From Crocosphaera subtropica ATCC 51142 (GTDB taxonomy: Bacteria; Cyanobacteriota; Cyanobacteriia; Cyanobacteriales; Microcystaceae): a DNA stretch of 32,000 bases. The notes under the pieces were generated by a model. That model worked only from the letters and a program-made list of their open reading frames with translations, did no database searches and had not been told where the DNA came from. The DNA is taken from the NCBI RefSeq assembly GCF_000017845.1, contig NC_010547.1, positions 360,001-392,000 on the forward strand, given 5' to 3'. Positions 4,940-30,102 of the stretch are shown here, piece by piece (position 1 is the first letter of the stretch; every line of letters starts with the position of its first letter). The translations under genes were made by a program, and so were the position numbers.

Positions 4940-4969
4940 CGGTTGATTCTTGGACTTGCTTTCCTCCTA

Positions 4970-5003: not shown

Positions 5004-5020
5004 CTATTTACAAAACTTTA

Positions 5021-5683: not shown

Positions 5684-5687
5684 AAAT

Positions 5688-6284: not shown

Positions 6285-6377
6285 TGTTTGACTCCTCAAC
6301 GCAATCAAGGGTATTCGAGCCAATTTTGGGACTCAAACTGTCCCACTTACAGTTTATAGTGAGACAGTTTAACTGTG
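6256..6377. promoter_or_regulatory. candidate recombination (IRS/res-like) site and divergent promoter region between the recombinase gene and tnpA
   Basis: The 13-bp direct repeat AACTGTCCCACTT occurs at 6258-6270 and 6336-6348. AAACTGTC (6335-6342) is inverted relative to GACAGTTT (6363-6370). Extra ACAGTTT/AACTGTG copies lie at 6349-6355 and 6371-6377, and GGGAC-N7-GTCCC lies at 6328-6344. Confidence 0.45.
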
Positions 6378-6383
6378 TAAATA

Positions 6384-9357
6384 ATGCCCGTCCAGTTTCT
6401 CTCTGAGGCAGAACATAAGTCTCTCAATCGTTTTCCAAGCGAAGTTAGTTCAGAAGATTTGAATCGCTTTTTCTTACTCTCGGATCAAGAATTATCAATT
6501 CTCAAACAACTTCGAGCCGAACATAATCGTCTGGGCTTTGCTTTACAGTTATGCTGTTTGCGGTATTTAGGGTTTTTCCCTGAAGAACTTCAGTTACCAA
6601 AGCCAGTGATTAACTATGTCGCTCAACAGTTACAGTTAATTCCAGAGTTATTAGTTTTCTATGGTCAACGCTCAAGCACCCAAAGAGAACATCAACGAAA
6701 AATACAAGCATTATTAGGATATCATCGTGCGTCTAATTCTGATTTGTTGAATTTAGAGCAATGGTTGACGGAGCGAGCATTAGAACACAATCAACCCTTA
6801 TTACTGTTCCACATGGCTTGCGAACACCTCAAACAGCAAAAAATCATTCGTATTGGCACAACGATTCTCGCGAAGATGGTTGCTACAGCTAGAACTAAAG
6901 CCAACGAACTAATCTACCAAAGCCTTCAAAATTTGTTAACCCAGGATAAGACTACTTGGCTTGATGGTTTGTTAGAAGTAGAGCCAAATGAGAAAAGAAC
7001 CCGTCTTTCCTGGCTACAGAAAACTCCAACAGGCAATAATCCCCAACAGATTTTAGAAACTCTTGATAAGATATCATTTCTACAACAACATCAGGTTGAT
7101 GCTTGGAATTTGAGTCAACTCAATCCCAACCGTATTAATTACTTAGCAAAAATTGGGGCAAGAGCCACCAATCAATACCTTCAAAGAGCTTCGGAAATTA
7201 GACGCTATCCTATCCTTATTTGCTTTCTCAAGCAGTCATTGTATAATTTCACTGATGATCTAATTGAAATGGTAGACCAACGTTTGTGGGAGTTATATAA
7301 CCAAGCAAAACGTAACTTCGATAGCGATCGCTTGATGGCTAGTAAAACCATTGACGAGAAGTTGAAGATGTTACAAAATATCGGTCAAATTCTTTTAGAT
7401 GGAGACATCGAAGATAATTCGGTTCGAGTTAAAACATTTGAATATATTACTCCTGACAATTTAAAGGCATCACTCTCTGAAACCCAACAGCTAATTCGTC
7501 CTGAAAATGATGCTTATGTTGATTACTTCGGGAAGTCCTATAATCGCGTTCGACGTTTTTCGAGTAAACTTTTGGCCACACTGAAATTTCAAGTCAAAGG
7601 TAGTGATTCGGGGTTACTAACAGCACTAAATTTAGTCCACGAAATCCACCTGGGACGAAGACGAAAATTACCTGATGAGGCTCCCACTGAGTTTGTCCCA
7701 GAGTCTTGGCGGCCTTATGTTCAGTCGGGTCAAAAACTTAATCGACGCTACTACGAACTAGCAGCCTTGTGGTTCTTACGACAACAGTTACGTTCGGGAG
7801 ATATTTATCTGGCTCAAAGTCGTCGTTTTAGCGAACTAGAAACCTATTTTATTCCACCAAAAGAATGGTCATTATGCCGAGATGAAGTAGTCAATTTAAC
7901 GGGAACGCCTATTGATGCCAGGCTTCGTCTAACCGAAAGAGAAAAGGAATTGGTTATTTTAATGGGGCAGGTCGAAGAACTGCTAAATCAACCAGATAGC
8001 GATCTCATAGAAGAACGAGGGAAGTTAGTTCTCAGTCCTTTTAAGGCAGACGAGAAAAACCTGGAGTTGAAACGTTTAGCTGAAGAAATTACTACTCGCT
8101 TGCCTAGAATTGAAATTACCGATCTTTTAGTAGAAGTAGATAGTTGGACTAATTTTAGTAACGCCTTTGAACATCTTAATCTAGCTCAAAATAAAGATTC
8201 TAATACCTTACTCAGTCTCTACAGTTGTTTATTGGCCCAAGCTTGTAATTTAGATTTCCAACAAATGGCCACCTCGACAGGGTTATTGTACAGACGTTTG
8301 TGTTGGTTCAATAATTGGTACATCCGCGATGAAACCTTGCGTTTAGCTAACAACGCATTGATTGATTATCATTATGACTTGCCTTTGAGTCATTTATGGG
8401 GTGGTGGAATGTTATCTTCCTCTGATGGTCAAAGATTTCCCGCTAAAGGTTCTTTACGCCAAGCTCGTTCCTTACCCCGTTACTTTGGTTATGGGAAAGG
8501 AGTGACTTTTTATAGTTGGACTAGCGACCAATTTTCCCAGTATGGCAGTAAACCAATTCCTGCCACAGTTAGAGATGCCACCTATGTTCTCGATGAAATT
8601 CTCAACAATGAAACCGAACTATCAATCTTAGAACATACGACCGATACAGCAGGATATACAGAAGTGATTTTTGCTCTGTTCGATTTGTTAGGAATGCGCT
8701 TTTCTCCCCGTATTCGAGATTTAGCCGACCAAAAGCTTTATCGAACCAGTAATACTGACCTCGGTCTATATCCCCTACTCAAGAAGCATATTCAGGGAAT
8801 CATAAATCAGAGATTAATTTTGGATGATTGGGATGAGATGTTGCGCTTGGTGGGTTCCTTAAAAATGGGCTGGGTTACAGCCTCATTAATCATCCAAAAA
8901 CTTCAAGCCTTTCCTCGAAAACATCCTTTAATGCGGGTTCTTCAAGAGTATGGCAGGCTCATCAAAACTATTCATATTCTTCGTTGGTATGCTGATGAAG
9001 CTAATCGACGCAGACAAAGAGCGACAATTGAATAAAGGAGAAGCTTTGCACAGTCTACGTTCTCATCTTTTTTATGCCAATCAAGGAGAAATTAAAACTC
9101 AGCAGGATGACCAGTTGCTAAATCAAGTAGGATGTCTGAATTTAGTCACTAATGCCATTATTGTCTGGAATACAGTTTATATCGATAAAGTCGTTCAGCA
9201 ACTTCAACAAGAAGGTTATGCTGTCGATGATGAAAATTTAAAGCATATTTGGCCAACTCGTCATGCACATATCAATGTTTATGGACAATATCATTTTGAT
9301 AAAAAACGATTGAGGAAAAAACATCCCTTGAGAGCCTTACGAAATCCTAATTCTTGA
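6384..9357 (+). pseudogene. tnpA: Tn3-family DDE transposase interrupted by a +1 frame change near 9015
   Basis: The 883-aa ORF (6384-9035) has a DUF4158-like N-terminus and the motifs SSDGQRF and HTTDTAGYT. The conserved C-terminal block RQLNKGEALHSLRSHLFYANQGEI continues only in the overlapping ORF 8950-9357. The two frames join within CGACGCAGACAAAGAGCGACAATTG. Confidence 0.85.
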
Positions 9358-11540: not shown

Positions 11541-12452
11541 TTACTGAGTTTCTTCCCGCCAAATTTGCCAATAATTACCTAAACGTTCGATAAATATTGT
11601 TGGTTTTTCGGTATAAATGCGTTGTCCTAAAAATATAGCTGATAACTGTAATTCACCACGACGGCGATCAATTAAAGCAGTTAGAGTTTCTAAATTCTTT
11701 TCAATATCGAATCTTTCTGAGTTATTTAAAATGAATTTTTTTAAGATTGCTAAATCGTGGTCTTCGCCCAAATAATCAGATAGATCGTGAGTTTGGTCAA
11801 CCCATTCTTCGATTATCTCAGACCAAATAGGTCTCAGAATTCTTAGTTGATAGCGCAGATATTTGACTCGCTTACGCCATTCATGAAGGTTTTCTGCCGA
11901 GGGTTCGGACATGGATCGGTGTAAGCTTTTATAACCACGCTTGTAAACCCGTTTTAAACTTTTATCGACCGTCGACCAATTACTTGAGGTGATTTCCCAG
12001 TTATTGATGGCATTTTCGGCATCTTTTAGTTGATTTTGGACAGAAATTATAATATCTTCATCCAAGACTCGCTGATATTCTCTATGATAATCCACTTGTA
12101 ATTCTCGGCGAATATCTGTAAAAGTCATAGGGGTAACTGTATCGGCAAAATGTGTAGTTAAATTATCTAAGGTTTCAATTAGCACTTTCCTATCTCTTAG
12201 GTTGGCTAGACTTCGTCCTAGATCGCGCAAGTGAGTATTTTCCTGTTTATAAGTTTCTGATTGTAGGTGATTCCGTACTAAACGCAAAACCGCTCTAATT
12301 TTCTTTAACCGTTTACGAGCTTGGTGAACGGCTTCGTCAATGCCAAGCTTATCGGTATCAGTTAATTCTACTATTGCTTTTTCTCTTTGTTCTTGGGCAA
12401 TTCTTTTAATACCTCTCGGTATGGATTCTTGGCCTTTTAGTCGATAAGTCAT
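11541..12452 (-). CDS. CHAD domain-containing protein (polyphosphate-granule associated family)
   Basis: All-helical protein with the conserved His/Arg pattern of CHAD: AVHQARKRLKKIRAVLRL, HEWRKRVKYLRYQLRIL and LGEDHDLAIL. I prefer the ATG giving MTYRLKG (12452). The ORF track extends it to a TTG at 12503. Confidence 0.8.
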   Translation of the reverse strand: MTYRLKGQESIPRGIKRIAQEQREKAIVELTDTDKLGIDEAVHQARKRLKKIRAVLRLVRNHLQSETYKQENTHLRDLGRSLANLRDRKVLIETLDNLTTHFADTVTPMTFTDIRRELQVDYHREYQRVLDEDIIISVQNQLKDAENAINNWEITSSNWSTVDKSLKRVYKRGYKSLHRSMSEPSAENLHEWRKRVKYLRYQLRILRPIWSEIIEEWVDQTHDLSDYLGEDHDLAILKKFILNNSERFDIEKNLETLTALIDRRRGELQLSAIFLGQRIYTEKPTIFIERLGNYWQIWREETQ

Positions 12453-12607
12453 TGAATAGTCTTGTGCTTGTTCTAAGAGATTTTCTGGATGAGGCACTAC
12501 CAAGCTAAATTACATCGAGATCCTCTATGCTACTTCTTCTATACATTATACTACATTTTTTGGGGGCTAACGCATCTCTGGAGTTTAGACTAACGTTAGC
12601 TGATAGG

Positions 12608-14936: not shown

Positions 14937-15305
14937 TTAGCTTCGCAAACAACGCAGGCGATCAGAATAACTTTTCATAACCTCTAGGGCAAAGATAGGA
15001 GATTGTTGCACAGCAAAGAGAAAATGTTGATGGTCAAGGGAAACAAGCTGAGTGTCTGTCTGAGCCATAGCGGTGGAACTTCTTCGGTGATCACCATGAA
15101 CAAGGGCTCCGATGCCAAAAACATCTCCCGATTCAAGGGTCTCGACTACGGTATCATCGACTAAGATATTGACGTTTCCTGTAACAATTCCGTACATGAG
15201 TTGTGCTGGCTCTCCTTGAGAAAAAATGATTTCCCCAGACTTAAAAGCCTTAGTTTCACCATTGCTTTGTAGAATTTTGACAGTTTGAACGGGTTCTAAA
15301 ATCAT
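14937..15305 (-). CDS. stand-alone cyclic-nucleotide-binding (CNB/Crp-type effector) domain protein without an HTH
   Basis: It has a beta-roll pattern (FKSGEIIFSQGEPAQLMYGIVTGNVNI) and a phosphate-binding-cassette-like segment (GDVFGIGALVHGDHRRSSTAMA). No DNA-binding domain follows. I prefer the ATG giving MILEPVQ (15305). The ORF track extends it to 15377. Confidence 0.75.
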   Translation of the reverse strand: MILEPVQTVKILQSNGETKAFKSGEIIFSQGEPAQLMYGIVTGNVNILVDDTVVETLESGDVFGIGALVHGDHRRSSTAMAQTDTQLVSLDHQHFLFAVQQSPIFALEVMKSYSDRLRCLRS

Positions 15306-15430
15306 CGCTTTACATCTCAAAAAGTTCGTTATAACATAAGGAAGTGAAAGGAAGTGAAGCTCCCTATAGCTGTACATTCAGTCAGTTGTCTTGCTACTTA
15401 GAAAGAGAAATTTCAAGAGTATAATTCCGT

Positions 15431-15891: not shown

Positions 15892-18093
15892 ATGTCTAAA
15901 ACTGAAAAAGAATTTGGGGAAATGAACTTAAAAGAGGCACAATATTATCTAAATCGAGAATTGAGTTGGCTCGAATTCAATAAGCGAGTGCTTTACGAAT
16001 CAGAAGATCCCCGAACCCCACTCTTAGAGCGTTTAAAATTTAGTGGAATTTTCAGTTCAAACCTAGACGAATTTTTTATGGTGAGAGTTTCAACCCTCAA
16101 AGAGCAAGTAGAAGCTAAAGTGAGTCAATTAACACCAGATGGACGGACTCCTCAAGGACAGTTAGAAGAAATAGAGAAAACCCTTAGACCCTTAATAACA
16201 AAGCAACATGAGGATTTTGAACAAGAATTACGTCCTCAATTAAACCAAGTGGGGATTCATCTACTAAGTTATACAGACCTAAAAGAGCAACAGATTGAAT
16301 ATCTTGGCAACTACTTTAAACAACAGATTTTTCCCGTCTTGACCCCTTTAGCAGTAGACCCAGGACATCCCTTTCCAAAAATGGCTAACTTGAGCCTAAA
16401 CTTGGCTGTAGCCGTAGTCAATCCCCATAATGGACAAGAAAATTTTGCGAGAGTCAAAGTCCCCACCGATTTACTACCCCGTTTTATTCCCTTGCCGTCT
16501 CATTTGTGGGAGCAACCTCAATCAGAAGGAGTTTGGGTGGGGGTTCTCTTAGAAGAAGTCATTGCAGATAATTTGTCATCTTTATTTGCTGGGATGAAAA
16601 TCAAAGAGTTTTGTGTTTTTAGACTAACGAGAGATGCGGATTTTCCTGTACAAGAAGACGAAGCGGATGACTTATTGATAGCCATTCAACAAGAAATCAG
16701 TAAACGGCATTTTCAAGGATTTACAGTGCGTCTAGAAATTCAAAAATCAGCCTCTTCTTTCATTAAAGAAATGTTGATGAGGGGGCTAAACATTGGTCGA
16801 GACGACGTTTATGAGATAGCAGGGTTATTAAATCTCAAAGACTTGATGTTTTTCTTATCAACGCCACTTCCAGAACTAAAAGATCCTCCGTGGATACCTG
16901 TATTGCCCCCTCGTTTGCGACAAGTTCATAAATATCAAACCGCGCTAGAAAACAATGGGATGGAATTAGCTCAACCAGAAGATGTCTTTGCAGTCATTAG
17001 GCAAGGAGATTTACTGGTTCACCATCCCTATGAATCTTTTAGGGACTCGGTCGAACTATTTATCACTCAAGCGGCCGATGACCCTCAAGTGCTGGCCATA
17101 AAAATGACCTTGTATCGGACTTCAGGGGATTCACCGATTATCAAAGCATTAATTCGGGCAGCCCAAAATCGTAAACAAGTAGCGGTTTTGGTGGAGCTAA
17201 AAGCTCGTTTTGACGAAGAAAGTAATATCAACTGGGCAAAACAACTTGAAGAAGCAGGGGTTCATGTGGTTTATGGGTTAGTGGGACTGAAAACCCATAC
17301 CAAAACCGTATTAGTGGTCAGAAAAGAAGAGCAAGAAATTCGTCGTTATGTGCATATCGGAACAGGGAACTATAATTCTAAAACAGCTAAACTTTATACT
17401 GATGTCGGCATTCTCAGTTGTTGTGAAGAATTGGGAGAAGACTTAACGGATTTATTTAACTATCTAACAGGATTTTCACAACAGCAATCTTATCGAAAAT
17501 TACTGGTAGCTCCGGTCAGTCTGAGACCGCGTTTAATCAGTTTAATTGAACGAGAGAGTGAATTAGCTCAACAGGGAAAATCGGCTCAAATTACGGCAAA
17601 AATGAATTCCTTAGTTGATCCTCAATTAATTCAAGCTCTTTATCAAGCCTCCATGGCCGGGGTTAAAATTCAGTTAATTGTGCGAGGAATTTGTTGTTTG
17701 CGACCCGGTTTAGAGGGAGTTAGCGAGAATATAGAGGTCATTAGCATTATTGGCCGTTATTTAGAACATTCCCGTATTTTTTATTTTCATAATGACCGAG
17801 ATAGTGAAATATTTATTGGTAGTGCTGACTGGATGCCACGGAACTTAGATCGACGGGTTGAAGTGGTGACACCGGTTGAAGCACCGAACTTAAAGCAGCA
17901 GTTAAAAGAGATGTTAGACATTTTCTGGTCAGATAACCGTCAAGCATGGGAACTACAATCAGATGGTTCGTATCATCAACGTCATCCCCAAAATGAAGAT
18001 CCAGAAAGAAATGCACAACTGATCTTTATGGAAAAAGCGACGCAATCAATAGACTTTTCGCGTCTAACCTCTAATCAAAAAAGCGAATGCTAG
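15892..18093 (+). CDS. ppk1: polyphosphate kinase 1
   Basis: 733 aa with the PPK1 N-terminus YLNRELSWLEFNKRVL and two PLD-like HKD regions (GLKTHTKTVLVVR, and YLEHSRIFYF with IGSADWMPRNLDRRVEV). Confidence 0.95.
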   Translation: MSKTEKEFGEMNLKEAQYYLNRELSWLEFNKRVLYESEDPRTPLLERLKFSGIFSSNLDEFFMVRVSTLKEQVEAKVSQLTPDGRTPQGQLEEIEKTLRPLITKQHEDFEQELRPQLNQVGIHLLSYTDLKEQQIEYLGNYFKQQIFPVLTPLAVDPGHPFPKMANLSLNLAVAVVNPHNGQENFARVKVPTDLLPRFIPLPSHLWEQPQSEGVWVGVLLEEVIADNLSSLFAGMKIKEFCVFRLTRDADFPVQEDEADDLLIAIQQEISKRHFQGFTVRLEIQKSASSFIKEMLMRGLNIGRDDVYEIAGLLNLKDLMFFLSTPLPELKDPPWIPVLPPRLRQVHKYQTALENNGMELAQPEDVFAVIRQGDLLVHHPYESFRDSVELFITQAADDPQVLAIKMTLYRTSGDSPIIKALIRAAQNRKQVAVLVELKARFDEESNINWAKQLEEAGVHVVYGLVGLKTHTKTVLVVRKEEQEIRRYVHIGTGNYNSKTAKLYTDVGILSCCEELGEDLTDLFNYLTGFSQQQSYRKLLVAPVSLRPRLISLIERESELAQQGKSAQITAKMNSLVDPQLIQALYQASMAGVKIQLIVRGICCLRPGLEGVSENIEVISIIGRYLEHSRIFYFHNDRDSEIFIGSADWMPRNLDRRVEVVTPVEAPNLKQQLKEMLDIFWSDNRQAWELQSDGSYHQRHPQNEDPERNAQLIFMEKATQSIDFSRLTSNQKSEC

Positions 18094-18404: not shown

Positions 18405-19100
18405 TTATTTAAGAACTTTTTTTTCTAAGACATGACCTGATTGATCCATCTCATAAACAAGAGGAACTCCAGTCCCAAGTTCTAAATTGGGGATAGCTTC
18501 AGAAGAGATGTTTTCTAGTTCCATAATGATAGAACGTAAAGAATTGCCGTGGGCAGCAATGAGAACATGATCTCCCTCAATAATATGTTTGAGAATACGG
18601 TCACGGAAAAAGGGCAAAGTACGACGACGAGTATCTTCAAGACTTTCACCCCCAGGGGGCCGAACATCATAAGAACGTCGCCAAGTATGCACCTGTTGTT
18701 CCCCGAACTTTTCTGAGGTTTCAGCTTTGTTTAACCCTTGTAAATCACCGTAGTAACGTTCATCAAGGGCAGCACTAAGAAAAATGGGTAATTCATCGTT
18801 AGGGTTGCCGTCATATTGATCCCAACCATGCCAATCTTTATCGTCAGTATTATGCTTAATAATGGGGATTTTGCCACCACAGATATCATCTACCTCTGTT
18901 AAGCAAATAACAGCCGTTTCAATAGCCCGAAAGAGCATACTGGTAAAACAAACATCGACACGATAAGGGCGTAATTTACAAGAGGCGACAGTGGCCTCAG
19001 CCCGACCCTGTTCACTGAGGGGAACATCAACCCAACCCGTGAATTTATTAGCTGCATTCCACAAACTTTGTCCATGTCGAATTAAAATTAGCTGAGACAT
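18405..19100 (-). CDS. gpmA: 2,3-bisphosphoglycerate-dependent phosphoglycerate mutase
   Basis: It carries LILIRHGQSLWNAANKFTGWVDVPLSEQG (the RHG catalytic motif), ERYYGDLQGLNKAET, WRRSYDVRPP and IAAHGNSLR. Confidence 0.9.
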   Translation of the reverse strand: MSQLILIRHGQSLWNAANKFTGWVDVPLSEQGRAEATVASCKLRPYRVDVCFTSMLFRAIETAVICLTEVDDICGGKIPIIKHNTDDKDWHGWDQYDGNPNDELPIFLSAALDERYYGDLQGLNKAETSEKFGEQQVHTWRRSYDVRPPGGESLEDTRRRTLPFFRDRILKHIIEGDHVLIAAHGNSLRSIIMELENISSEAIPNLELGTGVPLVYEMDQSGHVLEKKVLK

Positions 19101-19106
19101 TTCTCC

Positions 19107-20534
19107 TTAACTCCCTTGTGCAATAGTGTGAACATTAAGGAAGCTAGTGCTTCTAGCTTGTCTTAAAGGTAAACCGCCTAAAATCAAAATCTCATCTCCT
19201 GGGGTAGCAAAATTCCGTTCCAATAACACGGATTCCATTTGTTCGAGTAGTTGTTCTAAGGTGAGACCATCGTATTGAAAGAGAACAGGACGCACTCCCC
19301 AAACTAAGTTAAGACGATGATAAACCTCTAAGCTAGGGGTTAAAGCCACAACGGGAACCTTGGGACGTTCTGCTGCAGCTAATTTGGCTGAGTAACCAGT
19401 TTCAGTAAAGGCGACAATACATTGAAGCTCAAGCACTTTATCAATGGCGTTGAGAGCTTCGGCTAAGGCACCAGCTTTATCTCGATTTCGTGGGGGATAA
19501 TTAGTAAAGCTAATTTCTGGTTCAATATCACGAGCAATACTAGCTAACATCGTCACTGCTTGTACAGGAAAGTCACCGACAGCCGATTCTCCTGAAAGCA
19601 TGACGGCATCAGTCCCATCAATAATAGCATTAGCGACATCGCTGGCTTCGGCACGAGTAGGACGAGGGTTACGAATCATACTATCGAGCATTTGAGTGGC
19701 GGTAATCACAGGAATACCTTTTTGATTACACATCCGAATAATGCGTTTTTGAAGCAAGGGAACTTTTTCAGGACGCATTTCGACCCCTAAATCACCACGA
19801 GCGACCATAATGGCATCACATTCATTGACAATAGCCTCTAAATGTTCAATGGCCTGGGGTTTTTCAATTTTGGCTAAGACAGGAATATCAACATTTTTAG
19901 CGGCCAACAGGGATTTCAAGGTTTGAATATCGGCAGCTTGGCGAACAAAACTTAAAGAAATAAGATCGACCCCTTGAGAAATACCAAATTCTAAGTCTTT
20001 TTTATCCTTTTCTGTCATCGAAGGAAGTCGTAAGTTGAGAGAAGGAAAATTGACTCCTTTATGACTTTTGAGAACGCCACCTTCAACCACCTGGCAAGTC
20101 ACCGCATTACCCTCAATAGTTTCAACCCTTAATTCTAATAAGCCATCATCCAATAAAACTTGGGTGCCAGGTTGTGCTTCTTCGGCCACATAAGGATAAT
20201 CAATACCGATAGTATTCTCTTGATTTTGCCATTCTTTGAGGGGAACCAAGGTGATAGAGGAGCCATCGGTTAAGGTAATTCCGTCTTTGGGTAGTTCTCC
20301 GACCCGAATTTTTGGCCCTTGTAAGTCTTGTAAAATGGTAAGGGGTAGGTCTAATTCTTCTGAAAGCTGACGGAGTAATTTGACCATTTGACCATGATCT
20401 TCATAGCTACCATGAGAAAAATTTAATCGAGCGACATTCATCCCTGCCAGCATCATTCGACGTAGGACATCAGGGGAATGACTGGCCGGTCCAATAGTAG
20501 CAACGATTTTAGTGCGAAAAATTAAGGGTTTCAT
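19107..20534 (-). CDS. pyk: pyruvate kinase
   Basis: 475 aa carrying TKIVATIGPAS, NVARLNFSHG, IMVARGDLGVE and VITATQMLDSM. Confidence 0.95.
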   Translation of the reverse strand: MKPLIFRTKIVATIGPASHSPDVLRRMMLAGMNVARLNFSHGSYEDHGQMVKLLRQLSEELDLPLTILQDLQGPKIRVGELPKDGITLTDGSSITLVPLKEWQNQENTIGIDYPYVAEEAQPGTQVLLDDGLLELRVETIEGNAVTCQVVEGGVLKSHKGVNFPSLNLRLPSMTEKDKKDLEFGISQGVDLISLSFVRQAADIQTLKSLLAAKNVDIPVLAKIEKPQAIEHLEAIVNECDAIMVARGDLGVEMRPEKVPLLQKRIIRMCNQKGIPVITATQMLDSMIRNPRPTRAEASDVANAIIDGTDAVMLSGESAVGDFPVQAVTMLASIARDIEPEISFTNYPPRNRDKAGALAEALNAIDKVLELQCIVAFTETGYSAKLAAAERPKVPVVALTPSLEVYHRLNLVWGVRPVLFQYDGLTLEQLLEQMESVLLERNFATPGDEILILGGLPLRQARSTSFLNVHTIAQGS

Positions 20535-20565
20535 GGACGTTCGACTTCACAAAAAGAACTGTATG

Positions 20566-22140
20566 TTAGTGATAAGAGATAGTTAAGTTGGCGGGTTTGG
20601 CGCGATCTCCGGTCAAAGTTACCCCTCGTTGATTGGCGGCTAAATGGCGAACAATTTGATAAACGGTTTCACATTGTTCGCTTGCCCCTGCTTTTGCGGA
20701 CAAATCAGTGATATTTAAGGGAGTGGATGACGCTTTAAGAACCCCTAACACATCTCGCTGTAAGTCAAGAATAGAAGCAGCTGCTTTCTTTCCGGCTTCC
20801 ACTCCTGGTTGATGATAGGCGTTAATATTAACCAAAGAGGCATAAAGTCCCACGGCCCTTTCATAAAGAGCAATTAATGCACCAACGGTACGAGGATTAA
20901 CTTGGGGAATGGTAATGGTGATCGAATCTCGGTGATTATCGTATAAAGCAAGTCTGGTTCCCAGTAAGAACCCAGAGAGAAAGTCTCCTGATGTAGCTTC
21001 GGGTTCAACTTCTAAAGATTTCCCCGGACGATCTTCTAATACTTCAATAAAGGTGGCAAAAAAGTTAGGAATTCCTTCTCTTAATTGCTGTACATAAGCG
21101 TGTTGGTCTGTAGAGCCTTTATTGCCATATACCGCTAACCCTTGATGAACAATATTCCCGTCACGGTCTTGTTCTTTACCCAAGGATTCCATAACTAATT
21201 GTTGTAAATAGCGAGAAAATAACAACAAACTATCTTTATAAGGCAAAATGACCATATCTTTTTTGCCTTGACCATCCCCACTGTAATACCAAGCAAAGGC
21301 TAACAGGGCTGCAGGATTATTTTTAACTTCTGTTACTCTGGTGGCAATATCCATCTCCTTGGCCCCATCGAGTAATTCCCGAATATTAATTCCTAGTAAA
21401 GCAGCAGAAAGTAAGCCGACGGCTGACATTTCGGAGGTACGTCCCCCCACCCAGTCAAACATGGGGAATTCCGCTAACCAGCCTTCCATGCGCTCTAATT
21501 CGTCCATTTTGCTGCCTATCATGGTAATAGCAACTGCATGGGCTGGAAATTTTAAGCCTTGTTGTTCATAAGCCCATTTGACTTCGAGCATTCCGTTACG
21601 GGTTTCGGGGGTTCCTCCTGATTTGCTCGTAACAATAACGAGGGTACTCTTTAAACGATCTTTGAGGCGATTTAAGACTCGATCTATGCCGGCTGGATCA
21701 GTATTATCGATAAAATGAATGTTTAAAGGGGGAAAGTCTGGGGAAAGGGCTTCAGCTACAAATTCTGGTCCTAAAGCTGAACCGCCAATACCAACGGAAA
21801 GAATATCGGTAAATTTATCGGCTTCTGGGGGTTTAATGGTTCCTTGATGAACTTTCTGGACAAAAGCTTCAATCCCTTCGAGATTGTCGATAATCTCTTT
21901 TTTTTGTTCTGGAGGTGCGATTTCAGGATTTCGTAACCAGTAATGTCCCACCATGCGATTTTCATCAGCATTAGCGATTATACCTTGTTCTAGGGCTTCC
22001 ATTTCTTGGAAAGCTTGAGTAAATTGGGGTTTAAGACTTTCAAACAAGCTAGTTTCAAAGCGCATCCGACTAATATCGAGATAAAGGTCTAGCCCTTGGT
22101 GATAATAAAGCCAATCTTGATAACGTTGCCAAAGATTCAT
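20566..22140 (-). CDS. pgi: glucose-6-phosphate isomerase
   Basis: 524 aa carrying [30 protein letters not shown] and [15 protein letters not shown]. Confidence 0.95.
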
Positions 22141-22233
22141 GATTCACTCAGTTAATTAATACAAAAGTTTTTTAATAACAGTGATCAGTTGCTTGAACTA
22201 ATCGCTGAGAATCAGAGAGATAAAAATCTACAT

Positions 22234-23520
<1,287 letters not shown>

Positions 23521-23904: not shown

Positions 23905-25188
23905 TCATTGATTTTCTTGTAATAAATTAGAAAGAGATTTTACAGCAGCAAAACTGGGATCAGGTAAAACAATCCAAGTTCCTTGGGGTGAATTATAACC
24001 ATAGTCTTGAGCAATTTTTTGAAACTCTGGTGATTGAATGATTCGTAATAATTGGGTTCCTTTCTCTGAAAAAGAGAAGAATTGATTACTATTAACAACC
24101 GTATGGGATAAGGCAACTAAGGTAAATTGAGAATTCGCTTCAATGATTTTTTTGCCAACAGAATAATAAGTTAATGCCCAAGGAAAACCTCCTTCTTCTA
24201 AAGCAACTTTAATCTTAGAGGACGTAGACTCTGCAAAACCAGAACGAAGTCTTAACTTTTCCATTTTTTTGGCAAGTTCTGGAGGCGTTTCTATTGGTAA
24301 TGGTTCAAATTGAGGAATGTCAGAACGATTGATTAATTGTGGTTGATTGGCTAAATTATTTAATAACATATTGTACCAAATTGTCCCGATTAAAGTTTCA
24401 GCCATTACGCCACCATTGGATTTACGAGCATCAGTAATAATAACTCCTGGAGGGGAGACGTATTGCATTAATCCCATTTGGTTCCAAGTTAAATTTCCTT
24501 CTAAAAAATCCGCAAAGGTAACGGTATCTACTTTATAATCAAAACCATACTTTTTGAGAGAATTATCAGCTTTAATTGCGGTAAAAAACTGATTTTCTGC
24601 TAAAGTTTGAGCGGCATTTTTATTAACGACTAAAACCATAGGATCACTAAATGTTGCTTCGTTGTCTAAAATTTTTATACCTTTAGCTTCTAGGATTTGT
24701 TTTCCTCCTTCAGCAATGGGTGCATCTCCTGTCCAAATAAAATCTAACTGATCTAAATCTGTTTGAGATTGAAGGGTAGATAATTGGGAAATTGAGCCTT
24801 TTTTTGTAATACTTCCTTCAGTTATTTGTAAATTTTGTTGTTCTAATAGTTCTCTTACTGTCTCATTTCTCACTAATAAGTCATATCGTTCTCCCCCAAC
24901 ATAACCATAAATTAAATTAGGAGTTTTAAATTTTTCTTGAATTTGAGGAAATCCAAAAACTGCTAACAAAAATATACTTAAACCCAGTAAAATATAAGCA
25001 ATCCAAGTAGAAAAGTTTTGAATTCTCTGACTCAAACTACTCGTTAAAATTAACACAGCTATACTGACAGTTAAACCAATGGCGATCGCATTGATCCAAT
25101 TGACTCCTAATAACTTGAGAACTAAGGTTATCAGAACAATTAGAATACTACTAATGAGTTGAGAGAGTTTTCTTTGTTGACGATTCAT
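23905..25188 (-). CDS. membrane-anchored extracytoplasmic protein with a substrate-binding-protein-like domain
   Basis: 427 aa. Three N-terminal hydrophobic helices (aa ~10-85) are followed by a ~340-aa soluble domain with an alternating beta/alpha, SBP-like character (DFIWTGDAPIAEGG, MVLVVNKNAAQ). It is the third gene of the 28737-23905 operon, 34 nt after the preceding stop. Confidence 0.6.
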   Translation of the reverse strand: MNRQQRKLSQLISSILIVLITLVLKLLGVNWINAIAIGLTVSIAVLILTSSLSQRIQNFSTWIAYILLGLSIFLLAVFGFPQIQEKFKTPNLIYGYVGGERYDLLVRNETVRELLEQQNLQITEGSITKKGSISQLSTLQSQTDLDQLDFIWTGDAPIAEGGKQILEAKGIKILDNEATFSDPMVLVVNKNAAQTLAENQFFTAIKADNSLKKYGFDYKVDTVTFADFLEGNLTWNQMGLMQYVSPPGVIITDARKSNGGVMAETLIGTIWYNMLLNNLANQPQLINRSDIPQFEPLPIETPPELAKKMEKLRLRSGFAESTSSKIKVALEEGGFPWALTYYSVGKKIIEANSQFTLVALSHTVVNSNQFFSFSEKGTQLLRIIQSPEFQKIAQDYGYNSPQGTWIVLPDPSFAAVKSLSNLLQENQ

Positions 25189-25222: not shown

Positions 25223-26794
25223 CTAAATTTGAGCCTCCCGAAATGCTTTAAGTAATTCATCTAAAGTTTCACTAGCATTTTGTGAAATAATAGGTCTTGC
25301 ATCTAGTTTAGCGGATAATTGTTGCAGTTGTTGAGTATTAACTCCTCCTGCTCCAACAATCGTTAATTCTGGATTTTTATCTTGAATTGACTGATAAATA
25401 TTCAACAGTTCAGGGGTGACAGGATCACGAAATTGTCCATCGGTAAATAAGAAAATTTCCAGTTTATAATCAGAGGGAATTTTTTGAGCTGTTTCTAATC
25501 CCATGATTAACCCTTTATCCACAGGGGTTCCTCCCCCTGGTTTTACTTCTTTTTGCAAAGTTTCCCATAAAGTTTCTCTTGATATTTCTTCCCCTGGTTG
25601 ACTATTAAGAGGAATTTGGTAAGCATCATTTCTTTGATAAATAATTAAACTAAAACGATCATCAGGAGAGTATAAAAAATTATCTTTGGCTTTTTGGGGT
25701 TCTAATAATTCTGAAAAAGCAGCTAATAATTGTTCGTAACCTTGTCCTCTCATGGAACCAGAAGCATCAATAATGCCAATAATCCACCGTTTTTGTCGTA
25801 CTGAAGGGTGAAAGTTATCTAAAAGTTGACGATGCACTTCAGCAATGGGAGTGACTTCTTTGGTAACAGTATTAGGTAAGGGTGGATTTAATTGTTTAAT
25901 TTGCTGAAATTTACGGGGATTTTCTGCTTCTAATTGATTAAAAACTCCTTCAATTAATTGGGTTTTTAGGGTTTCATTTTCTGTTGTTACAAACCAAGTT
26001 GGGGTGACAGTAATAGCTGGTTTGACTTCGATTAAAGTAACCGGTTTTGATAAGGAAAGTGTTTCTCCATGATGATACAATGCTTTGCCATCGGGAGCGT
26101 ATAAAAATCGATAGAGAGCAACCAGTGTATTTTCTGGCCAATCTTTGGCTAATGTTTCCGCTAAATAACCGGTACTTTCACTAGATTTACCTAAATTTTG
26201 ATAAATAGGCTGTAGGGGTTTTAAAGACTCAGGGGTTATTTGTTCTGGGGTTAAGGTAGAAGCAATGGTTTCTCTGGTTAACCAAAGTAGAGTATTATAG
26301 CCACTATTACTATAGGTGGGAATGGTGGTGGCTAACTGTATTTCTCCTGATTTGAGTTTATCTAAAATTTCCTGACGAGGGACAATTTTGTTGTCCCATC
26401 CTAATGATTGTGCTGTGGTTTTTGGCAGAGCAAATTGTACTCGACTTTGATACAATGTTCCAGAGGTATTCACCCAATTGGCAGAAGGACATTTAATATC
26501 GGGCCACATTTCATCTGCAATAGCGATCGCATCGAGTTCTCCTTTACAAGCCATGTTAACTAAAGAAACTGACCCTTTTGGGATGATCGTAACCCTTTTT
26601 TTTGTTGCTTGTTCGGCTAAGGATGTTATTTCTTCTTCAAAGATTAAATTCTCTGAAGAAATGCCAATACGAATCCCATTATTATTACTAAAGCTATTAT
26701 TATTTTGATTATTTTGGCAACTGTAAATAGTCACTGTCAGGAAAAGTGTGACACAGAAACTAATCATTAACCGAATACTTTTATGATGACTCAT
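25223..26794 (-). CDS. substrate-binding and von Willebrand factor A (VWA) domain-containing lipoprotein-like protein
   Basis: The signal/lipobox-like N-terminus (LFLTVTIYSC) is followed by an Asn/Gln-rich linker and an SBP-like domain. The C-terminal VWA domain has a complete MIDAS motif (IIDASGS ... GGGTP ... FTDG). I prefer the ATG giving MSHHKS (26794). The ORF track start at 26866 would overlap the upstream gene. Confidence 0.8.
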   Translation of the reverse strand: MSHHKSIRLMISFCVTLFLTVTIYSCQNNQNNNSFSNNNGIRIGISSENLIFEEEITSLAEQATKKRVTIIPKGSVSLVNMACKGELDAIAIADEMWPDIKCPSANWVNTSGTLYQSRVQFALPKTTAQSLGWDNKIVPRQEILDKLKSGEIQLATTIPTYSNSGYNTLLWLTRETIASTLTPEQITPESLKPLQPIYQNLGKSSESTGYLAETLAKDWPENTLVALYRFLYAPDGKALYHHGETLSLSKPVTLIEVKPAITVTPTWFVTTENETLKTQLIEGVFNQLEAENPRKFQQIKQLNPPLPNTVTKEVTPIAEVHRQLLDNFHPSVRQKRWIIGIIDASGSMRGQGYEQLLAAFSELLEPQKAKDNFLYSPDDRFSLIIYQRNDAYQIPLNSQPGEEISRETLWETLQKEVKPGGGTPVDKGLIMGLETAQKIPSDYKLEIFLFTDGQFRDPVTPELLNIYQSIQDKNPELTIVGAGGVNTQQLQQLSAKLDARPIISQNASETLDELLKAFREAQI

Positions 26795-26853
26795 GAGACT
26801 GTTAAATAAGGTCTGCTGAAAAAATACTTTAATAGGAGCAAAGAAAAGGTAAG

Positions 26854-28695
26854 CTAATGTCCCCAAGTATTAATAACAATAATCGATAAAAACCCTAATA
26901 CAGTGGACATTCCTACAATAGAACCCCCTTTCGCATAAGCTTCGGGTAACATGGTTTCAGAAATGACGGTTAACATGGCACCTGCGGCCATCGCTCCCAC
27001 CAAAGAAACCCAATTTTCAGGAACATTGGCAAATAAAATAGTCCCCACCGACGCTAAAATACCCGTAATTAACATAATTGAACTCCACATAATTAAAATT
27101 TTCCTCACAGAAAACCCTTGTTCTTTCATGCCATGAGAACTAGAAAAAGCTTCTGGATAGTTAGAAATAAATAACCCTGCTAAGAGAGAGGGGCTTAGAG
27201 GTGCAGTGATAATATGCGCTCCAATGGTCAAAGCTTCTGGAATACCATCCATTAATAATCCTAACCAGATGGCCATGGGTGCATCTTTATGTTGAGCAAC
27301 GGTATTAGATAGGGTACTTGTTGAGGGAATTAAATGACCCGCATTCATACTTTGACAAGCTTTTTCGACCCATTGTCCAGCTTGAGATGAGGTAAAATTT
27401 TGTTGTTTGAGAAGATAATTCTCCATTTTGGGTTGTTCTAAAAACTTTTTGACACTGTCTTCGAGGTTTTTTGATTGTTGTAACATTTCCTCAAAATCCC
27501 GTTTTCTTAGTACCCAAACTTGTACATCGGTTAAAGCGATGGCACTAACAGTATGTTTCGCTCCAGTAACAAAAGATAATTCCCCAACAGGATCGCCTGG
27601 TTTTAAAACAAGAGGGGGTTTTTGCAAATGATGAGGATAAACAATTTCGATTTCCCCTTGATGAATAATAAAGAGACGATCTGAGTCTTCTTCTGGTTGA
27701 AAAAAGACATGACCATCTTTACGATGATGATAAGTTAAACGTTGGGCAATTTCTAGGAGTTCATGGTGGTATAAATAACGAAAAATAGGAAATCTTGTAA
27801 TCTGTCGGGCAATTTGTAAAAAGTCTGAGGTATGACGCTCAATTTCAACGGCGGGTAACATAACCCCTTCTTGGTGTAATTTTTGGATAGCTTTTTTTAA
27901 CCAATGGTTAACTTGAATTTCATCCAGCTTTTGGCGTTGTTGTAAATAGTTAGAAAGGTCTTGAGTTTTCCAAAATAATTCTATTTGTTGGCAAAGATAG
28001 GGAGAGGTGGGCAATAATTGTTCAAAGTCCGGACGGGGTAAAATATCAATTTCAGTTTCTTCTGTGGTTTGGGCAACGGTTTGATGAGGAGAAGCGGTTA
28101 AAAAGGCAAATTGTCCAAAAACATCGTTTTCTTCCAGTTTTTTAAAAGATTGAAAATCAGTTTGAGGATCTAATAATTTAACTTGTCCTTTTCTAACAAT
28201 ATAAAGACTTTCACTGGGATCTCCTTGTCGATAAATGGTTGTTTTGGGAGGATAATGAGCAGATAATAAGACTTTAGCTAATTTTTGTCTCAGAGATTGT
28301 GGGGATTTTTGAAACAAGTTAATTCGTTTAAAATTAGTCACCCGTTGTTGAAAACGACGGGATTGTTTTTGAGTTAAATGAGAAAGCGTTGTGGAGGGTT
28401 TGCGTAAAAAACCGCCAGAATTATTGACTAATTGATTAACAAAAGTAAAGAACAAACTGCCGAGAATTGAACCGATGACTAACTCTATAATATGTCCTTT
28501 TCGGGTCGCACTTCCTACTAAGTCAATGACTAAAGCTGCTAATAAAGCTCCACTACCAAAAGCCGTTAAAAAGGCTATCATACGAGAAACGGGAGTCCAT
28601 AGTAAAGCACTGATAGAACCTAAAGGCATGGAACAGGCACTAATGATTCCATAAACAAAAGCGGTTATGACAGGAGAAGTTGAAAGAAGGGTCAT
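26854..28695 (-). CDS. ZIP-family (ZupT/GufA-like) metal permease with two tandem CNB domains inserted in the central cytoplasmic loop
   Basis: There are three TM helices at the N-terminus. Two CNB-like domains follow (track aa ~140-245 and ~313-420). Next come ZIP TM4/TM5-like motifs (LMDGIPEALTIG, FISNYPEAFSS) and the C-terminal AGAMLTVISETMLPEA. I prefer the ATG at 28695 (MTLLST). The ORF track starts at a TTG at 28737. Confidence 0.8.
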   Translation of the reverse strand: MTLLSTSPVITAFVYGIISACSMPLGSISALLWTPVSRMIAFLTAFGSGALLAALVIDLVGSATRKGHIIELVIGSILGSLFFTFVNQLVNNSGGFLRKPSTTLSHLTQKQSRRFQQRVTNFKRINLFQKSPQSLRQKLAKVLLSAHYPPKTTIYRQGDPSESLYIVRKGQVKLLDPQTDFQSFKKLEENDVFGQFAFLTASPHQTVAQTTEETEIDILPRPDFEQLLPTSPYLCQQIELFWKTQDLSNYLQQRQKLDEIQVNHWLKKAIQKLHQEGVMLPAVEIERHTSDFLQIARQITRFPIFRYLYHHELLEIAQRLTYHHRKDGHVFFQPEEDSDRLFIIHQGEIEIVYPHHLQKPPLVLKPGDPVGELSFVTGAKHTVSAIALTDVQVWVLRKRDFEEMLQQSKNLEDSVKKFLEQPKMENYLLKQQNFTSSQAGQWVEKACQSMNAGHLIPSTSTLSNTVAQHKDAPMAIWLGLLMDGIPEALTIGAHIITAPLSPSLLAGLFISNYPEAFSSSHGMKEQGFSVRKILIMWSSIMLITGILASVGTILFANVPENWVSLVGAMAAGAMLTVISETMLPEAYAKGGSIVGMSTVLGFLSIIVINTWGH

Positions 28696-28875
28696 GAGTA
28701 ATAAAAAATGCCTAAAAAAATCATTTCTTTTGATCAAATAATACTCTTGAGATATATCGAGTTGAATTCTATTAACTTAAATAAAGATTAAGATTTCTTT
28801 TGTTAATTTTTATTTAATCATTTCTTAAAATAGCCTCATTATTATTCTTATGAATTTAGTGGTAGGAACTATTAA

Positions 28876-30102
28876 GTGATTAATATTCTAGTTCTCAATG
28901 CAGGTTCTAGCAGTCAAAAAAGCTGTCTGTATTGTTTAGATGAAAAAGAGTTACCTCAAGAAACCCAAAAACCCATTTGGAGTGCCAATATTGATTGGAC
29001 GGCGACTAGCAATCAAGGAGTTTTTAATGTTAAAGCGAATGGAATCAAACAACATTTAACTCTCGAATCCAATGACCATCATCAAGGGATTCGTCAAATG
29101 CTGGATACTTTAATTCAGGGAAAGACAAAAGTTATTGATAATTTTTCTGCCATTAATCTGGTTGGTCATAGAGTGGTTCACGGAGGAACGAACTACTCAG
29201 AAGCGACCTTGATTAATTCAGATGTTAAGGCAACGATTACCGAATTAATTCCTCTGGCTCCTACTCATAATCCTGCTCATCTTGAAGGAATAGAAATCAT
29301 TGAAAGTATCTTGAATAATATTCCTCAAGTTGCCGTTTTTGATACAGCTTTTCATAGTCAAATGCCTCTGGAAAATGCAGCTTATCCGATTCCTTACCAA
29401 TGGCTAGAAAAAGGAATTCGTCGCTATGGTTTTCATGGGATTAGTCATCAATATTGTGCTAATCGTGTCGCCGAATTAATGAATCAACCTTTATCTTCTC
29501 TCAAATTAATTACTTGTCATTTAGGGAATGGTTGTTCTTTAGCTGCGATTAAAAATGGTATTAGTATTGATACAACGATGGGATTTACCCCCTTAGAAGG
29601 TTTAATGATGGGAACGAGAGGTGGTTCAATTGATCCGGCAATTTTAATTTACTTAATGCGAGAACATAATTTCCAAGCAGAAGAATTAAATCATTTGTTA
29701 AATCAAGAATCGGGGTTAAAAGGGATTTCTGGAATTTCTTCTGATATGAGAGCAATTTGTCAAGGAATTAAAGAAGGAAATCAACGGGCAAAATTAGCCT
29801 TTGATATGTTCATTCATCGTCTTCATTCTTGCCTCGGTTCAATGTTGACTTCTTTAGGGGGATTAGATGCTCTTGTTTTCACCGCAGGAATTGGAGAAAA
29901 TTCGACAATTGTTCGAGAAAAAGCTTGTGAGGCTTTGAGTTTTTTAGGGTTAGAATTAGACTTGTTTAAAAATAATGATTCTCCTGTCGGTGTAGATATT
30001 TCTAGCTCTGATTCATCTATAAAAGTCTTTGTGATTCAGACTCAAGAAGATTGGGCGATCGCTCAATCTTCTTGGCAATTATATAACTCTCTCTCACATT
30101 AA
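28876..30102 (+). CDS. ackA: acetate kinase
   Basis: 408 aa with a GTG start, carrying ILVLNAGSSSQK, GHRVVHGG, VFDTAFH, RRYGFHGISH and FTAGIGENS. Confidence 0.95.
   Translation: MINILVLNAGSSSQKSCLYCLDEKELPQETQKPIWSANIDWTATSNQGVFNVKANGIKQHLTLESNDHHQGIRQMLDTLIQGKTKVIDNFSAINLVGHRVVHGGTNYSEATLINSDVKATITELIPLAPTHNPAHLEGIEIIESILNNIPQVAVFDTAFHSQMPLENAAYPIPYQWLEKGIRRYGFHGISHQYCANRVAELMNQPLSSLKLITCHLGNGCSLAAIKNGISIDTTMGFTPLEGLMMGTRGGSIDPAILIYLMREHNFQAEELNHLLNQESGLKGISGISSDMRAICQGIKEGNQRAKLAFDMFIHRLHSCLGSMLTSLGGLDALVFTAGIGENSTIVREKACEALSFLGLELDLFKNNDSPVGVDISSSDSSIKVFVIQTQEDWAIAQSSWQLYNSLSH

Follow-up and report, generated by a model that had tools for sequence, protein, structure and literature searches.

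The locus cce_5182 raises the question of whether a membrane protein whose helices are separated by a large soluble region is a single transporter interrupted by a sensor, or a fusion of unrelated membrane domains. It lies in a 32,000-nucleotide stretch of Crocosphaera subtropica (Cyanothece) ATCC 51142 (contig NC_010547.1, positions 360,001 to 392,000), the whole of which is termed the window hereafter and numbered from its first letter; the strain has one linear chromosome (PMC3187577). The architecture is firm: cce_5182 is one eight-transmembrane (TM) ZIP interrupted at its TM3-TM4 loop by a tandem of cyclic nucleotide-binding (CNB) domains. It represents a large, widespread and unstudied ZIP family in which CNB-fold sensors are built into the regulatory loop.

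The open reading frame (ORF) is counted from the first TTG with the stop codon included, and its product is 100% identical to ACB54528.1.

26854-28737, minus strand: whole ORF of cce_5182 (ACB54528.1), from the first TTG to the stop, 627 aa.
28687-28695, minus strand: probable true start M15 (ATG, 'MTL'), giving 613 aa, from the homologue starts in the family alignment A1 and RefSeq.

The TTG start of this longest ORF sits 14 codons (28696-28737) upstream of the ATG found in the homologues and in RefSeq. Because the homologues in alignment A1 and the 613-aa protein WP_009547555.1 begin at M15, these 14 codons are probably untranslated, and the 627-aa GenBank model is probably too long at its N-terminus. 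An architecture of ~610 aa is common to more than 120 clusters, with a loop length of 367 aa plus or minus a few residues, so the layout of cce_5182 is not a product of chance or of an assembly artefact.

The AlphaFold2 model of cce_5182, built on 30 homologues, has a predicted local distance difference test (pLDDT) score of 83.5 and a predicted template-modelling score (pTM) of 0.57. It has three N-terminal helices at residues 22-46 (kinked), 51-80 and 83-106, followed by a linker helix (residues 114-138), a first β-roll (residues 158-234) with helices at residues 246-290, a second β-roll (residues 335-411) with helices at residues 423-465, and five helices between residues 473 and 626. This 3 + 5 pattern (residues 22-106 and 473-626) bears out the initial annotation, which had placed three TM helices at the N-terminus and the remaining ones at the C-terminus; the range it gave for an insert of ~370 aa, 27283-28395, translates exactly to residues 115-485. 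From the N- to the C-terminus, the parts are as follows.

28420-28674, minus strand: ZIP TM1-TM3 (aa 22-106), including the near-invariant acidic D72 of TM2; from AlphaFold2, a profile of the N-terminal module and hhalign.
28399-28416, minus strand: GGFLRK at the cytoplasmic end of TM3 (aa 108-113), invariant in alignment A1.
28324-28398, minus strand: basic, Lys/Arg-rich helix (aa 114-138) linking TM3 to the insert; from AlphaFold2.
28003-28323, minus strand: CNB domain A (aa 139-245; β-roll 158-234); from the best Pfam stretch (161-242), PDB matches and AlphaFold2.
27838-28002, minus strand: helical extension after CNB domain A (aa 246-300) with YLQxR...W; AlphaFold2 helices 246-290.
27475-27831, minus strand: CNB domain B (aa 303-421; β-roll 335-411); from the second Pfam stretch, PDB matches and AlphaFold2.
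27322-27474, minus strand: helical extension after CNB domain B (aa 422-472) running into TM4, homologous to the first extension; AlphaFold2 helices 423-465.
26860-27321, minus strand: ZIP TM4-TM8 (aa 473-626); from Pfam Zip (aa 477-604), a TM4-8 profile and alignment to BbZIP via relatives.

The soluble part is readily recognized. Pfam cNMP_binding (PF00027) matches it in two stretches (E 4.8e-35; 119.8 bits compared to a cut-off of 27.5), and structural similarity search using Foldseek revealed that it resembles the tandem-CNB proteins PKG, PKA-R and Epac (E ~1e-14), with all 50 matches listed for the full-length model being CNB proteins. Pfam, AlphaFold2 and Foldseek thus agree with the earlier proposal of two β-roll CNB units, joined by a helical linker, between TM3 and the rest of the membrane part. 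Unit A with its hairpin (residues 135-300) shares 23% identity over 146 aa with unit B and its hairpin (residues 301-478; BLASTP, E 6e-16), and a YLQxR...W motif is repeated after both domains; Y264, L265 and W279 of the first extension are invariant in alignment A1. From this similarity, the shared motif included, the two-CNB form arose through tandem duplication of a module composed of a CNB-fold sensor and a helical hairpin. By contrast, we assign the GGFLRK motif to the ZIP core rather than to the insert, because many CNB-free relatives still carry it; GG[FY]LRK is retained by many relatives that have one CNB domain or none.

Taken by itself, the sequence of cce_5182 leaves some room for a simple fusion, in which the three N-terminal helices would have another fold and only the C-terminal part would be ZIP-like. 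With Pfam Zip (PF02535), the score of 16.5 bits falls short of the cut-off (35.1) and the match covers only residues 477-604, corresponding to profile positions 168-299, and the N-terminal 104 aa match it at E 0.15. Joining the two membrane modules without the insert yields a spliced core with 14.8 bits, which is also below the cut-off. The spliced core gave nothing useful against NCBIfam and two weak matches against the single ZupT sequence, namely a TM7-to-TM2 match in hhalign (probability 7%) and a colinear high-scoring segment pair in BLASTP (E 1.0). Too weak to carry weight, these matches did hint at the internal repeat described below. Of the spliced cores from 18 family members, 14 reach E <= 0.01 on Pfam Zip, with 4e-8 as the lowest value.

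The relatives of cce_5182 settle the point. A TM4-8 profile was searched against 1.84 billion representative proteins, giving 3388 relatives at E <= 1e-3 and 261 at E <= 1e-30, which were mapped with hidden Markov models (HMMs) for the two membrane modules, N and C, and for the CNB units. Both membrane modules are present in every complete relative, including proteins of 295-350 aa that consist of a single Pfam Zip domain, and the N-module HMM matches CNB-free ZIP relatives at 1e-15 to 4e-35. Five CNB-free relatives (P0186, P0131, P0200, P0267 and P0269) score 47-75 bits on Pfam Zip, above the cut-off, with a match that spans profile positions ~11-313 of 323 and forms a single stretch in all but P0267. 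The family spliced core aligns with the CNB-free relatives colinearly over 242 columns (hhalign probability 100%, E 2e-81), and the gap falls exactly at the splice. The CNB-free relatives are in turn colinear with residues 10-230 of Escherichia coli ZupT (hhalign probability 91.5%) and align to BbZIP at E 7e-8. The eight-TM fold was compared with BbZIP on the CNB-free homologue P0186, the model of cce_5182 itself showing the 3 + 5 pattern. The top 10 Foldseek matches of the P0186 model (pTM 0.74) in the PDB are all BbZIP (probability 1.00), with template-modelling scores of 0.61-0.81 over ~300 columns, compared to 0.15 for the next PDB match.

Because the CNB-free relatives are single Zip domains, colinear with ZupT and similar in fold to BbZIP, cce_5182 is one interrupted ZIP, as the initial annotation had suggested. 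That annotation had also named the opposite outcome, N-terminal helices of a different fold; here they belong to the same Zip domain in the single-domain relatives, in the colinear alignments and in the superposition of P0186 on BbZIP over the full length. We therefore reject the fusion of unrelated membrane domains, whose probability is negligible. Within cce_5182, TM1-3 and TM6-8 align in register as an internal repeat that is not significant (E 0.01, probability 4%). TM2 AFGSGALLAALVIDLVGSA (residues 59-81, 28495-28563) aligns in register with TM7 AMAAGAMLTVISETMLPEA (residues 582-604, 26926-26994), and ZupT TM2 aligns in register with both. The TM2/TM7 match would fit the inverted repeat of the ZIP fold and, given its weak statistics (E 0.01), is suggestive only.

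The side of the membrane on which the insert lies follows from the charge distribution. For an N-out/C-out topology, the Lys and Arg residues number 10 inside compared to 2 outside, a bias that places the insert, by prediction, in the cytoplasm, where a ligand-binding tandem had been expected to lie. In addition, the large TM3-TM4 loop contains 47 Lys and Arg residues and domains of cytoplasmic type.

Three motifs in the C-terminal helices correspond to the metal site and the release pathway of BbZIP.

27235-27249, minus strand: TM4 motif DGIPE, in which D497, G498 and E501 correspond to BbZIP H177, N178 and E181; ZupT and BbZIP alignments.
27151-27165, minus strand: TM5 motif SNYPE, in which S525, N526 and E529 correspond to BbZIP Q207, D208 and E211; ZupT and BbZIP alignments.
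26938-26961, minus strand: TM7 motif SETMLPEA, in which E594 and T595 correspond to BbZIP H275 and E276; BbZIP alignment.

The BbZIP site residues, and the location of H275 and E276 on the cytoplasmic release pathway, are taken from previous work (PMC9873690). In addition, D72 in TM2 aligns with BbZIP S106, on a weaker N-terminal stretch of the alignment. The Pro and Glu residues of TM4 and TM5 are kept in cce_5182, whereas the His positions are substituted: Asp replaces H177 of BbZIP, and Ser stands for Q207 of BbZIP and the His of ZupT. The canonical ZIP motifs (H-N-x-x-D/E in TM4; His or Gln in TM5) are absent. The "ZIP signature motifs" of the initial annotation are thus present as regards their Pro and Glu (D497/G498/E501; S525/N526/E529), but the metal-binding histidines are gone. 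This is a feature of the whole subfamily, which carries the His-free pair D-[GAS]-x-x-E and [SA]-N-x-x-E whatever the insert; the site reads DGESNE in 128 cases and DGEANE in 80.

These substitutions assign cce_5182 to a distinct ZIP subfamily whose predicted metal ligands are all oxygen donors. The second metal site is probably missing, because G498 replaces N178 and TM6, as read from the sequence, has no acidic residue. Zinc is accordingly not a safe assumption for the substrate. From the all-oxygen ligands and the apparent loss of the second site, we infer that a harder cation (Mn2+, Fe2+, Mg2+ or Ca2+) is more likely than Zn2+.

The cassettes of the two CNB domains are as follows.

28072-28119, minus strand: cassette of CNB domain A, FGQFAFLTASPHQTVA, with Q209 at the Glu position and H218 at the Arg position; alignment to yeast PKA-R.
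27541-27588, minus strand: cassette of CNB domain B, VGELSFVTGAKHTVSA, with E386 kept, H395 at the Arg position and T396 kept; alignment to PKG and PKA-R.

The position of the cassette Arg is occupied by His in 115 of the 134 two-CNB proteins for domain A and in 129 of the 134 for domain B, and H395 is invariant in alignment A1. Because the Arg that clamps the phosphate is replaced by a conserved His, ordinary cAMP or cGMP is probably not the ligand of cce_5182; a different metabolite that is phosphorylated or resembles a nucleotide is a candidate, as is pH-dependent binding. The conservation of the His argues for a working, non-standard pocket rather than random decay. CNB folds without the cassette Arg have generally been reported to be unresponsive to cAMP and to bind other ligands (bioRxiv 10.1101/2024.04.23.590730; PMC10959531).

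The initial annotation had compared the protein to CNG and HCN channels. A ligand-gated carrier remains plausible on the present data, but the cyclic nucleotide is doubtful in view of the cassette counts. In its strict form, cce_5182 would be a genuine cAMP- or cGMP-gated ZIP, in which His stands in for Arg, perhaps in a pH-sensitive manner, and cyanobacterial cyclic-nucleotide signalling acts directly on metal uptake. Both domains are strong cNMP_binding matches, His is able to carry a positive charge, and domain B keeps G385-E386 and T396 (Glu in 88 and Thr or Ser in 122 of the 134 clade members). Moreover, the one-CNB relatives, a diverse set, mostly have a canonical cassette, FGE...PR[ST]A, with the Arg in 29 and the Glu in 32 of 43 proteins, so the ancestral fusion probably sensed a cyclic nucleotide. 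Against this, over 85-95% of clade members have His at the Arg position in each of the two domains, and domain A (G208-Q209, Q219) has also lost the Glu, which is Gln, Arg, Lys or His in the clade, and the Ser/Thr after the Arg position. The reports on Arg-less folds point the same way (bioRxiv 10.1101/2024.04.23.590730). In addition, a stand-alone CNB protein of 146 aa in the window (14937-15377, minus strand) keeps an Arg in its cassette (...HRRSSTA...), and the His change is therefore specific to the ZIP-embedded domains. We consider a cyclic nucleotide-gated ZIP rather unlikely.

Sensing of the transported metal or of pH through the conserved His would make the tandem an autoregulatory device of the kind seen in the His-rich loops of ZIPs from eukaryotes or in the cytoplasmic metal-sensing parts of CDF, MgtE and CorA transporters. 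Each domain has a strictly conserved His in its ligand pocket, and the equivalent loop senses metal in characterized ZIPs such as ZIP4 and IRT1. Domain B finds its best NCBIfam match in encap_f2b (E 4.9e-18), and the CNB-like domain (CBD) of the family 2B encapsulins has a Trp at the cassette Arg position and carries a metal-binding subdomain (bioRxiv 10.1101/2024.04.23.590730). However, alignment A1 offers one conserved His per domain and few other ligands (D173; no Cys), too few for a classical site, and a soft-metal sensor would be an odd partner for a membrane site that avoids His. A classical metal site in each CNB domain was rejected as the leading idea on the count of one conserved His each, and metal or pH sensing as a whole is improbable. 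A nucleoside site of the trypanosome type was rejected as well. Trypanosomatid PKA-R binds nucleosides, and TbPKAR has Thr or Asn for the Arg together with an Ala-to-Glu change that binds the ribose (PMC10959531); this Glu is absent from cce_5182, which has A211 and S388.

The remaining alternative is that the tandem binds no ligand and serves as a structural, dimerization or docking module, for instance for the neighbouring SBP_bac_11 + VWA protein described below or for the polyphosphate machinery. The non-canonical cassettes would fit, as would the existence of CNB-free members, whose fold does without the insert. A third cassette type, FGEMALVTGLP[PA]I[AK]RA (PPIARA), occurs in a large one-CNB clade of proteobacteria (P0300-P0418) and could be read in the same way. 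Yet the pocket residues H218, G385, T391, H395 and T396 are highly conserved, the loop is strict at 367 aa, and each unit keeps a lid-like helical extension, the pattern of a working allosteric sensor. A ligand-free tandem is thus very improbable. The PPIARA cassette has no Arg at the canonical position and an Arg three residues later, and is a candidate non-standard ligand site in its own right.

The position of the insert suggests how such a sensor could act. In the BbZIP elevator, helices 1, 4, 5 and 6 form the transport domain and helices 2, 3, 7 and 8 form the scaffold; over the transport cycle, helix 4 separates from helices 3 and 7 at its cytoplasmic end (PMC9873690). As TM3 lies in the static scaffold and TM4 in the moving domain, the TM3-TM4 loop joins both halves at the cytoplasmic face. 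The CNB tandem would be tethered there by two helices, the linker helix 114-138 and the long helix running into TM4. A rigid, ligand-responsive tandem in this place would be well positioned to restrain or release the elevator movement, because it is held between static TM3 and moving TM4, and the binding of a small molecule from the cytosol would then turn transport on or off post-translationally. We infer that transport is gated by the CNB tandem. Altogether, the reading we consider reasonably probable is that cce_5182 is an eight-helix ZIP carrier for a divalent cation, with a His-free site and a TM3-TM4 loop expanded by a duplicated module of CNB sensor and hairpin, which probably responds to a ligand other than an ordinary cyclic nucleotide.

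Like the GufA-type ZIPs BbZIP (PDB 5TSA, 7Z6M and 8GHT) and E. coli ZupT, cce_5182 has eight TM helices in 3 + 5 order, the Pro and Glu of the x-x-x-P-E motifs in TM4 and TM5, and a colinear alignment, and the same elevator layout is expected, TM3 being part of the scaffold and TM4 of the transport domain. It differs from both in being too divergent for Pfam Zip on its own and in its loop, which is short and largely unstructured in BbZIP and ZupT, compared to ~370 aa of folded domains in cce_5182. In eukaryotic ZIPs, the TM3-TM4 loops are short or disordered and act by metal binding, ubiquitination or phosphorylation; they are His-rich and metal-sensing in ZIP4 and IRT1 and phosphorylated in ZIP7. 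The loop of cce_5182 has the same cytoplasmic position in the fold, where post-translational control is known to act in those ZIPs, and is occupied instead by paired folded sensor domains.

MloK1, SthK and the CNG/HCN channels also carry a CNB-fold domain covalently attached to a membrane transport protein, which allows direct control of ion flux by a ligand in the cytosol, and MloK1 is among the PDB matches of CNB domain B. However, CNG, HCN and MloK1 form a tetrameric P-loop pore with the CNB domain C-terminal to S6 via a C-linker, whereas cce_5182 is a ZIP-fold carrier, has no ion-channel Pfam match and carries the domains inside the TM3-TM4 loop. It further differs from these channels in having two CNB domains per chain and His for the cassette Arg. 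In this last respect it resembles the CNB folds that do not bind cAMP (trypanosomatid PKA-R, the 2B encapsulin CBD, CooA, NtcA and the KCNH CNBHD), where the fold is kept and the Arg is replaced: by His in cce_5182, by Thr or Asn in TbPKAR and by Trp in the encapsulins. CNB domain B has the PKA-R of Trypanosoma brucei and T. cruzi and the encapsulin 2B model among its best matches. Recruitment of a ligand-binding domain to tune a bacterial transporter post-translationally is also known from MgtE and OpuC (CBS), Ktr and Trk (RCK) and the CNBD-MFS fusions (PMC10710835). There the sensors are appended at a terminus or form separate subunits, whereas the sensor of cce_5182 interrupts the TM domain between its scaffold and transport halves.

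Two CNB domains are present in 134 of the complete relatives, one in 43 and none in 15. Only the loop between the N and C modules varies: it measures 39-92 aa in five CNB-free proteins (ten more CNB-free loops are longer), ~185-198 aa with one CNB domain, ~367 aa with two and up to ~600 aa with more. Some proteins, such as P0231 (864 aa) and P0252 (805 aa), have three cNMP_binding stretches or inserts of 450-600 aa, parts of which match no Pfam family. The CNB-free state was rejected as ancestral, since P0186 nests inside a one-CNB clade and looks like a secondary loss: it lies among one-CNB proteins at 65-84% identity, and its 1794 relatives at E <= 1e-10 are mostly one-CNB proteins of ~440 aa. 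The TM3-TM4 loop is an evolutionary hot spot, and the nesting suggests that CNB-free forms within one-CNB clades arose by secondary loss.

A pattern scan of species-representative genomes found 474 loci, and the best 80 of these come from cyanobacteria, Gamma- and Alphaproteobacteria, the anammox Scalindua and Brocadiaceae, and Thermodesulfobacteriota. The deposited names are generic, including "cyclic nucleotide-binding domain-containing protein", "CRP-like cAMP-binding protein" and "zinc transporter ZupT". The one-CNB ZIP OQA88225.1 (P0179 cluster) entered GenBank under the name "Cyclic nucleotide-gated potassium channel", a misannotation liable to spread. A literature search for the ZIP-CNB fusion, the locus tag and the two Pfam families together turned up no relevant paper, and a review from 2023 on how transporters are regulated covers CNBD-MFS fusions without mention of ZIP (PMC10710835).

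Gene neighbourhoods were counted in the best 80 of the 474 loci, at a mean of 15 kb each, with 24 unrelated genes as controls. A pst or ppk1 gene adjoins the ZIP/CNB gene in 10 of the 80 loci, and glycolysis or fermentation genes do so in 14; each control gene occurs in 0-2 loci, essentially just its own. Specifically, 4-5 loci have ppk1 and 6 have true pstB (about five lineages in three phyla); the other counts are enolase (6), phosphoglucomutase (5), ackA (4), lactate permease (4), pyk (3) and pgi (3). The clearest arrays are pstC-pstA-pstB-ppk1-ZIP of Dactylococcopsis (L063 65-6917), on one strand with gaps of <=45 nt, ZIP-ppk1 of a Pseudomonadota metagenome-assembled genome (MAG; L080 10001-14045), pstSCAB-ZIP of Xenococcus (L024 6151-11803), and pstSCAB-pstS-orf-ZIP of Thiocapsa (L087 3923-11911), the last followed by pyruvate-kinase-like and SBP_bac_11 + VWA genes. 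An early dismissal of a conserved partner, drawn from seven unrelated contexts, was overturned by this count, which revealed a partial, lineage-spanning linkage, not a universal one. The recurrent linkage to pst/ppk1 and to glycolysis and fermentation genes suggests that the cation flux serves phosphate, polyphosphate and phosphotransfer metabolism. As a separate observation, an EF-hand (Ca2+-binding) protein gene lies convergently and directly downstream of the Dactylococcopsis ZIP/CNB gene (L063 6933-7490, minus strand), a faint hint towards Ca2+.

The window itself has a glycolysis and fermentation cluster around cce_5182, with genes for a phosphoglycerate-mutase-like protein, pyruvate kinase, PGI and enolase (18405-23508, minus strand) and a divergent acetate kinase gene (28876-30102, plus strand); ppk1 and a CHAD protein lie within 15 kb. 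The stand-alone CNB gene mentioned above adjoins PPK1 (15892-18093, plus strand), with the polyphosphate-associated CHAD gene nearby (11541-12503, minus strand), a second juxtaposition of CNB and polyphosphate genes within the window. Directly downstream of cce_5182 lies the neighbour referred to above.

25223-26866, minus strand: lipoprotein-like protein with SBP_bac_11 and VWA domains, not part of the transporter; from Pfam and the start codon.

It probably starts at the ATG at 26794, separated from the ZIP stop codon by 59 nt. The SBP_bac_11 + VWA architecture, a rare one, recurs in 4 of the 80 loci, in two phyla, and its protein may be a periplasmic partner that binds an anion and a metal. 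Such genes are found in Thiocapsa (L087 13987-17474, two tandem copies), a gammaproteobacterial MAG (L054 5293-6864) and the Crocosphaera MAGs L013 and L015. A 427-aa ORF without a Pfam match follows in the window (23905-25188, minus strand) and holds the same position in L013 and L015. Farther away, positions 2334-9357 contain mobile-element debris, namely two Tn3-family transposase ORFs and a phage-type integrase (5688-6323). One transposase lacks its N-terminal domain; the second breaks off at profile position 299 of 389, and the short ORF that comes next overlaps it, which probably reflects a frameshift.

A fuller, distinctly speculative and on balance unlikely proposal would unite these observations. 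The His-type CNB tandem would sense a signal other than cAMP or cGMP, such as a phosphorylated metabolite, a cue linked to polyphosphate or energy charge, pH or the transported cation, and would gate a His-free ZIP for Mg2+, Ca2+ or Mn2+, supplying counter-ions or cofactors to the uptake of phosphate, the synthesis of polyphosphate and phosphotransfer in glycolysis or fermentation. Such a supply would explain the pstCAB-ppk1-ZIP arrays, the SBP + VWA partner and the location in a fermentation cluster.

Several points weigh against the gated, His-free carrier as we read it. As for the fold, cce_5182 alone falls below the Pfam Zip cut-off, so its predicted ZIP membership is one of transitive homology, and the HMMER profile of the spliced core found no match in the PDB even at E 10. 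The packing of the CNB tandem on the membrane domain is uncertain in the AlphaFold2 model, at a full-length pTM of 0.57. Prediction of the substrate from ligand chemistry is weak. A protonated His could still contact a cyclic phosphate, and domain B keeps Gly-Glu and Thr. Finally, the neighbourhood enrichment was noticed post hoc among phylogenetically related loci, and ~70% of the 80 loci show neither the pst/ppk1 nor the glycolysis/fermentation theme.

Across life, zinc, iron and manganese enter cells mainly through ZIPs, and defects in human ZIPs cause disease. Their post-translational control is poorly understood, and in the ZIPs that have been studied the TM3-TM4 loop implicated in it is either short or mostly without structure, BbZIP being the sole bacterial ZIP with solved structures in the PDB copy searched. 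The present family is a natural ZIP with folded sensors between scaffold TM3 and moving TM4, and thus a system for probing elevator control. In bacterial signalling, where few direct effectors of CNB domains are known, it contributes a secondary metal carrier, along with a large and conserved collection of CNB domains in which His takes the place of the cassette Arg. As its genes lie near pst, ppk1 and fermentation genes in cyanobacteria, purple sulfur bacteria and anammox bacteria, the regulated import of a cation may be tied to the metabolism of phosphate or polyphosphate in organisms important for marine nitrogen and phosphorus cycling. If the reading of a hard-cation carrier with a ligand other than cAMP or cGMP is true, the family would represent a new class of CNB-fold effector and a new class of ZIP substrate, and would be the first natural ZIP with an allosteric on/off handle between its scaffold and elevator domains.

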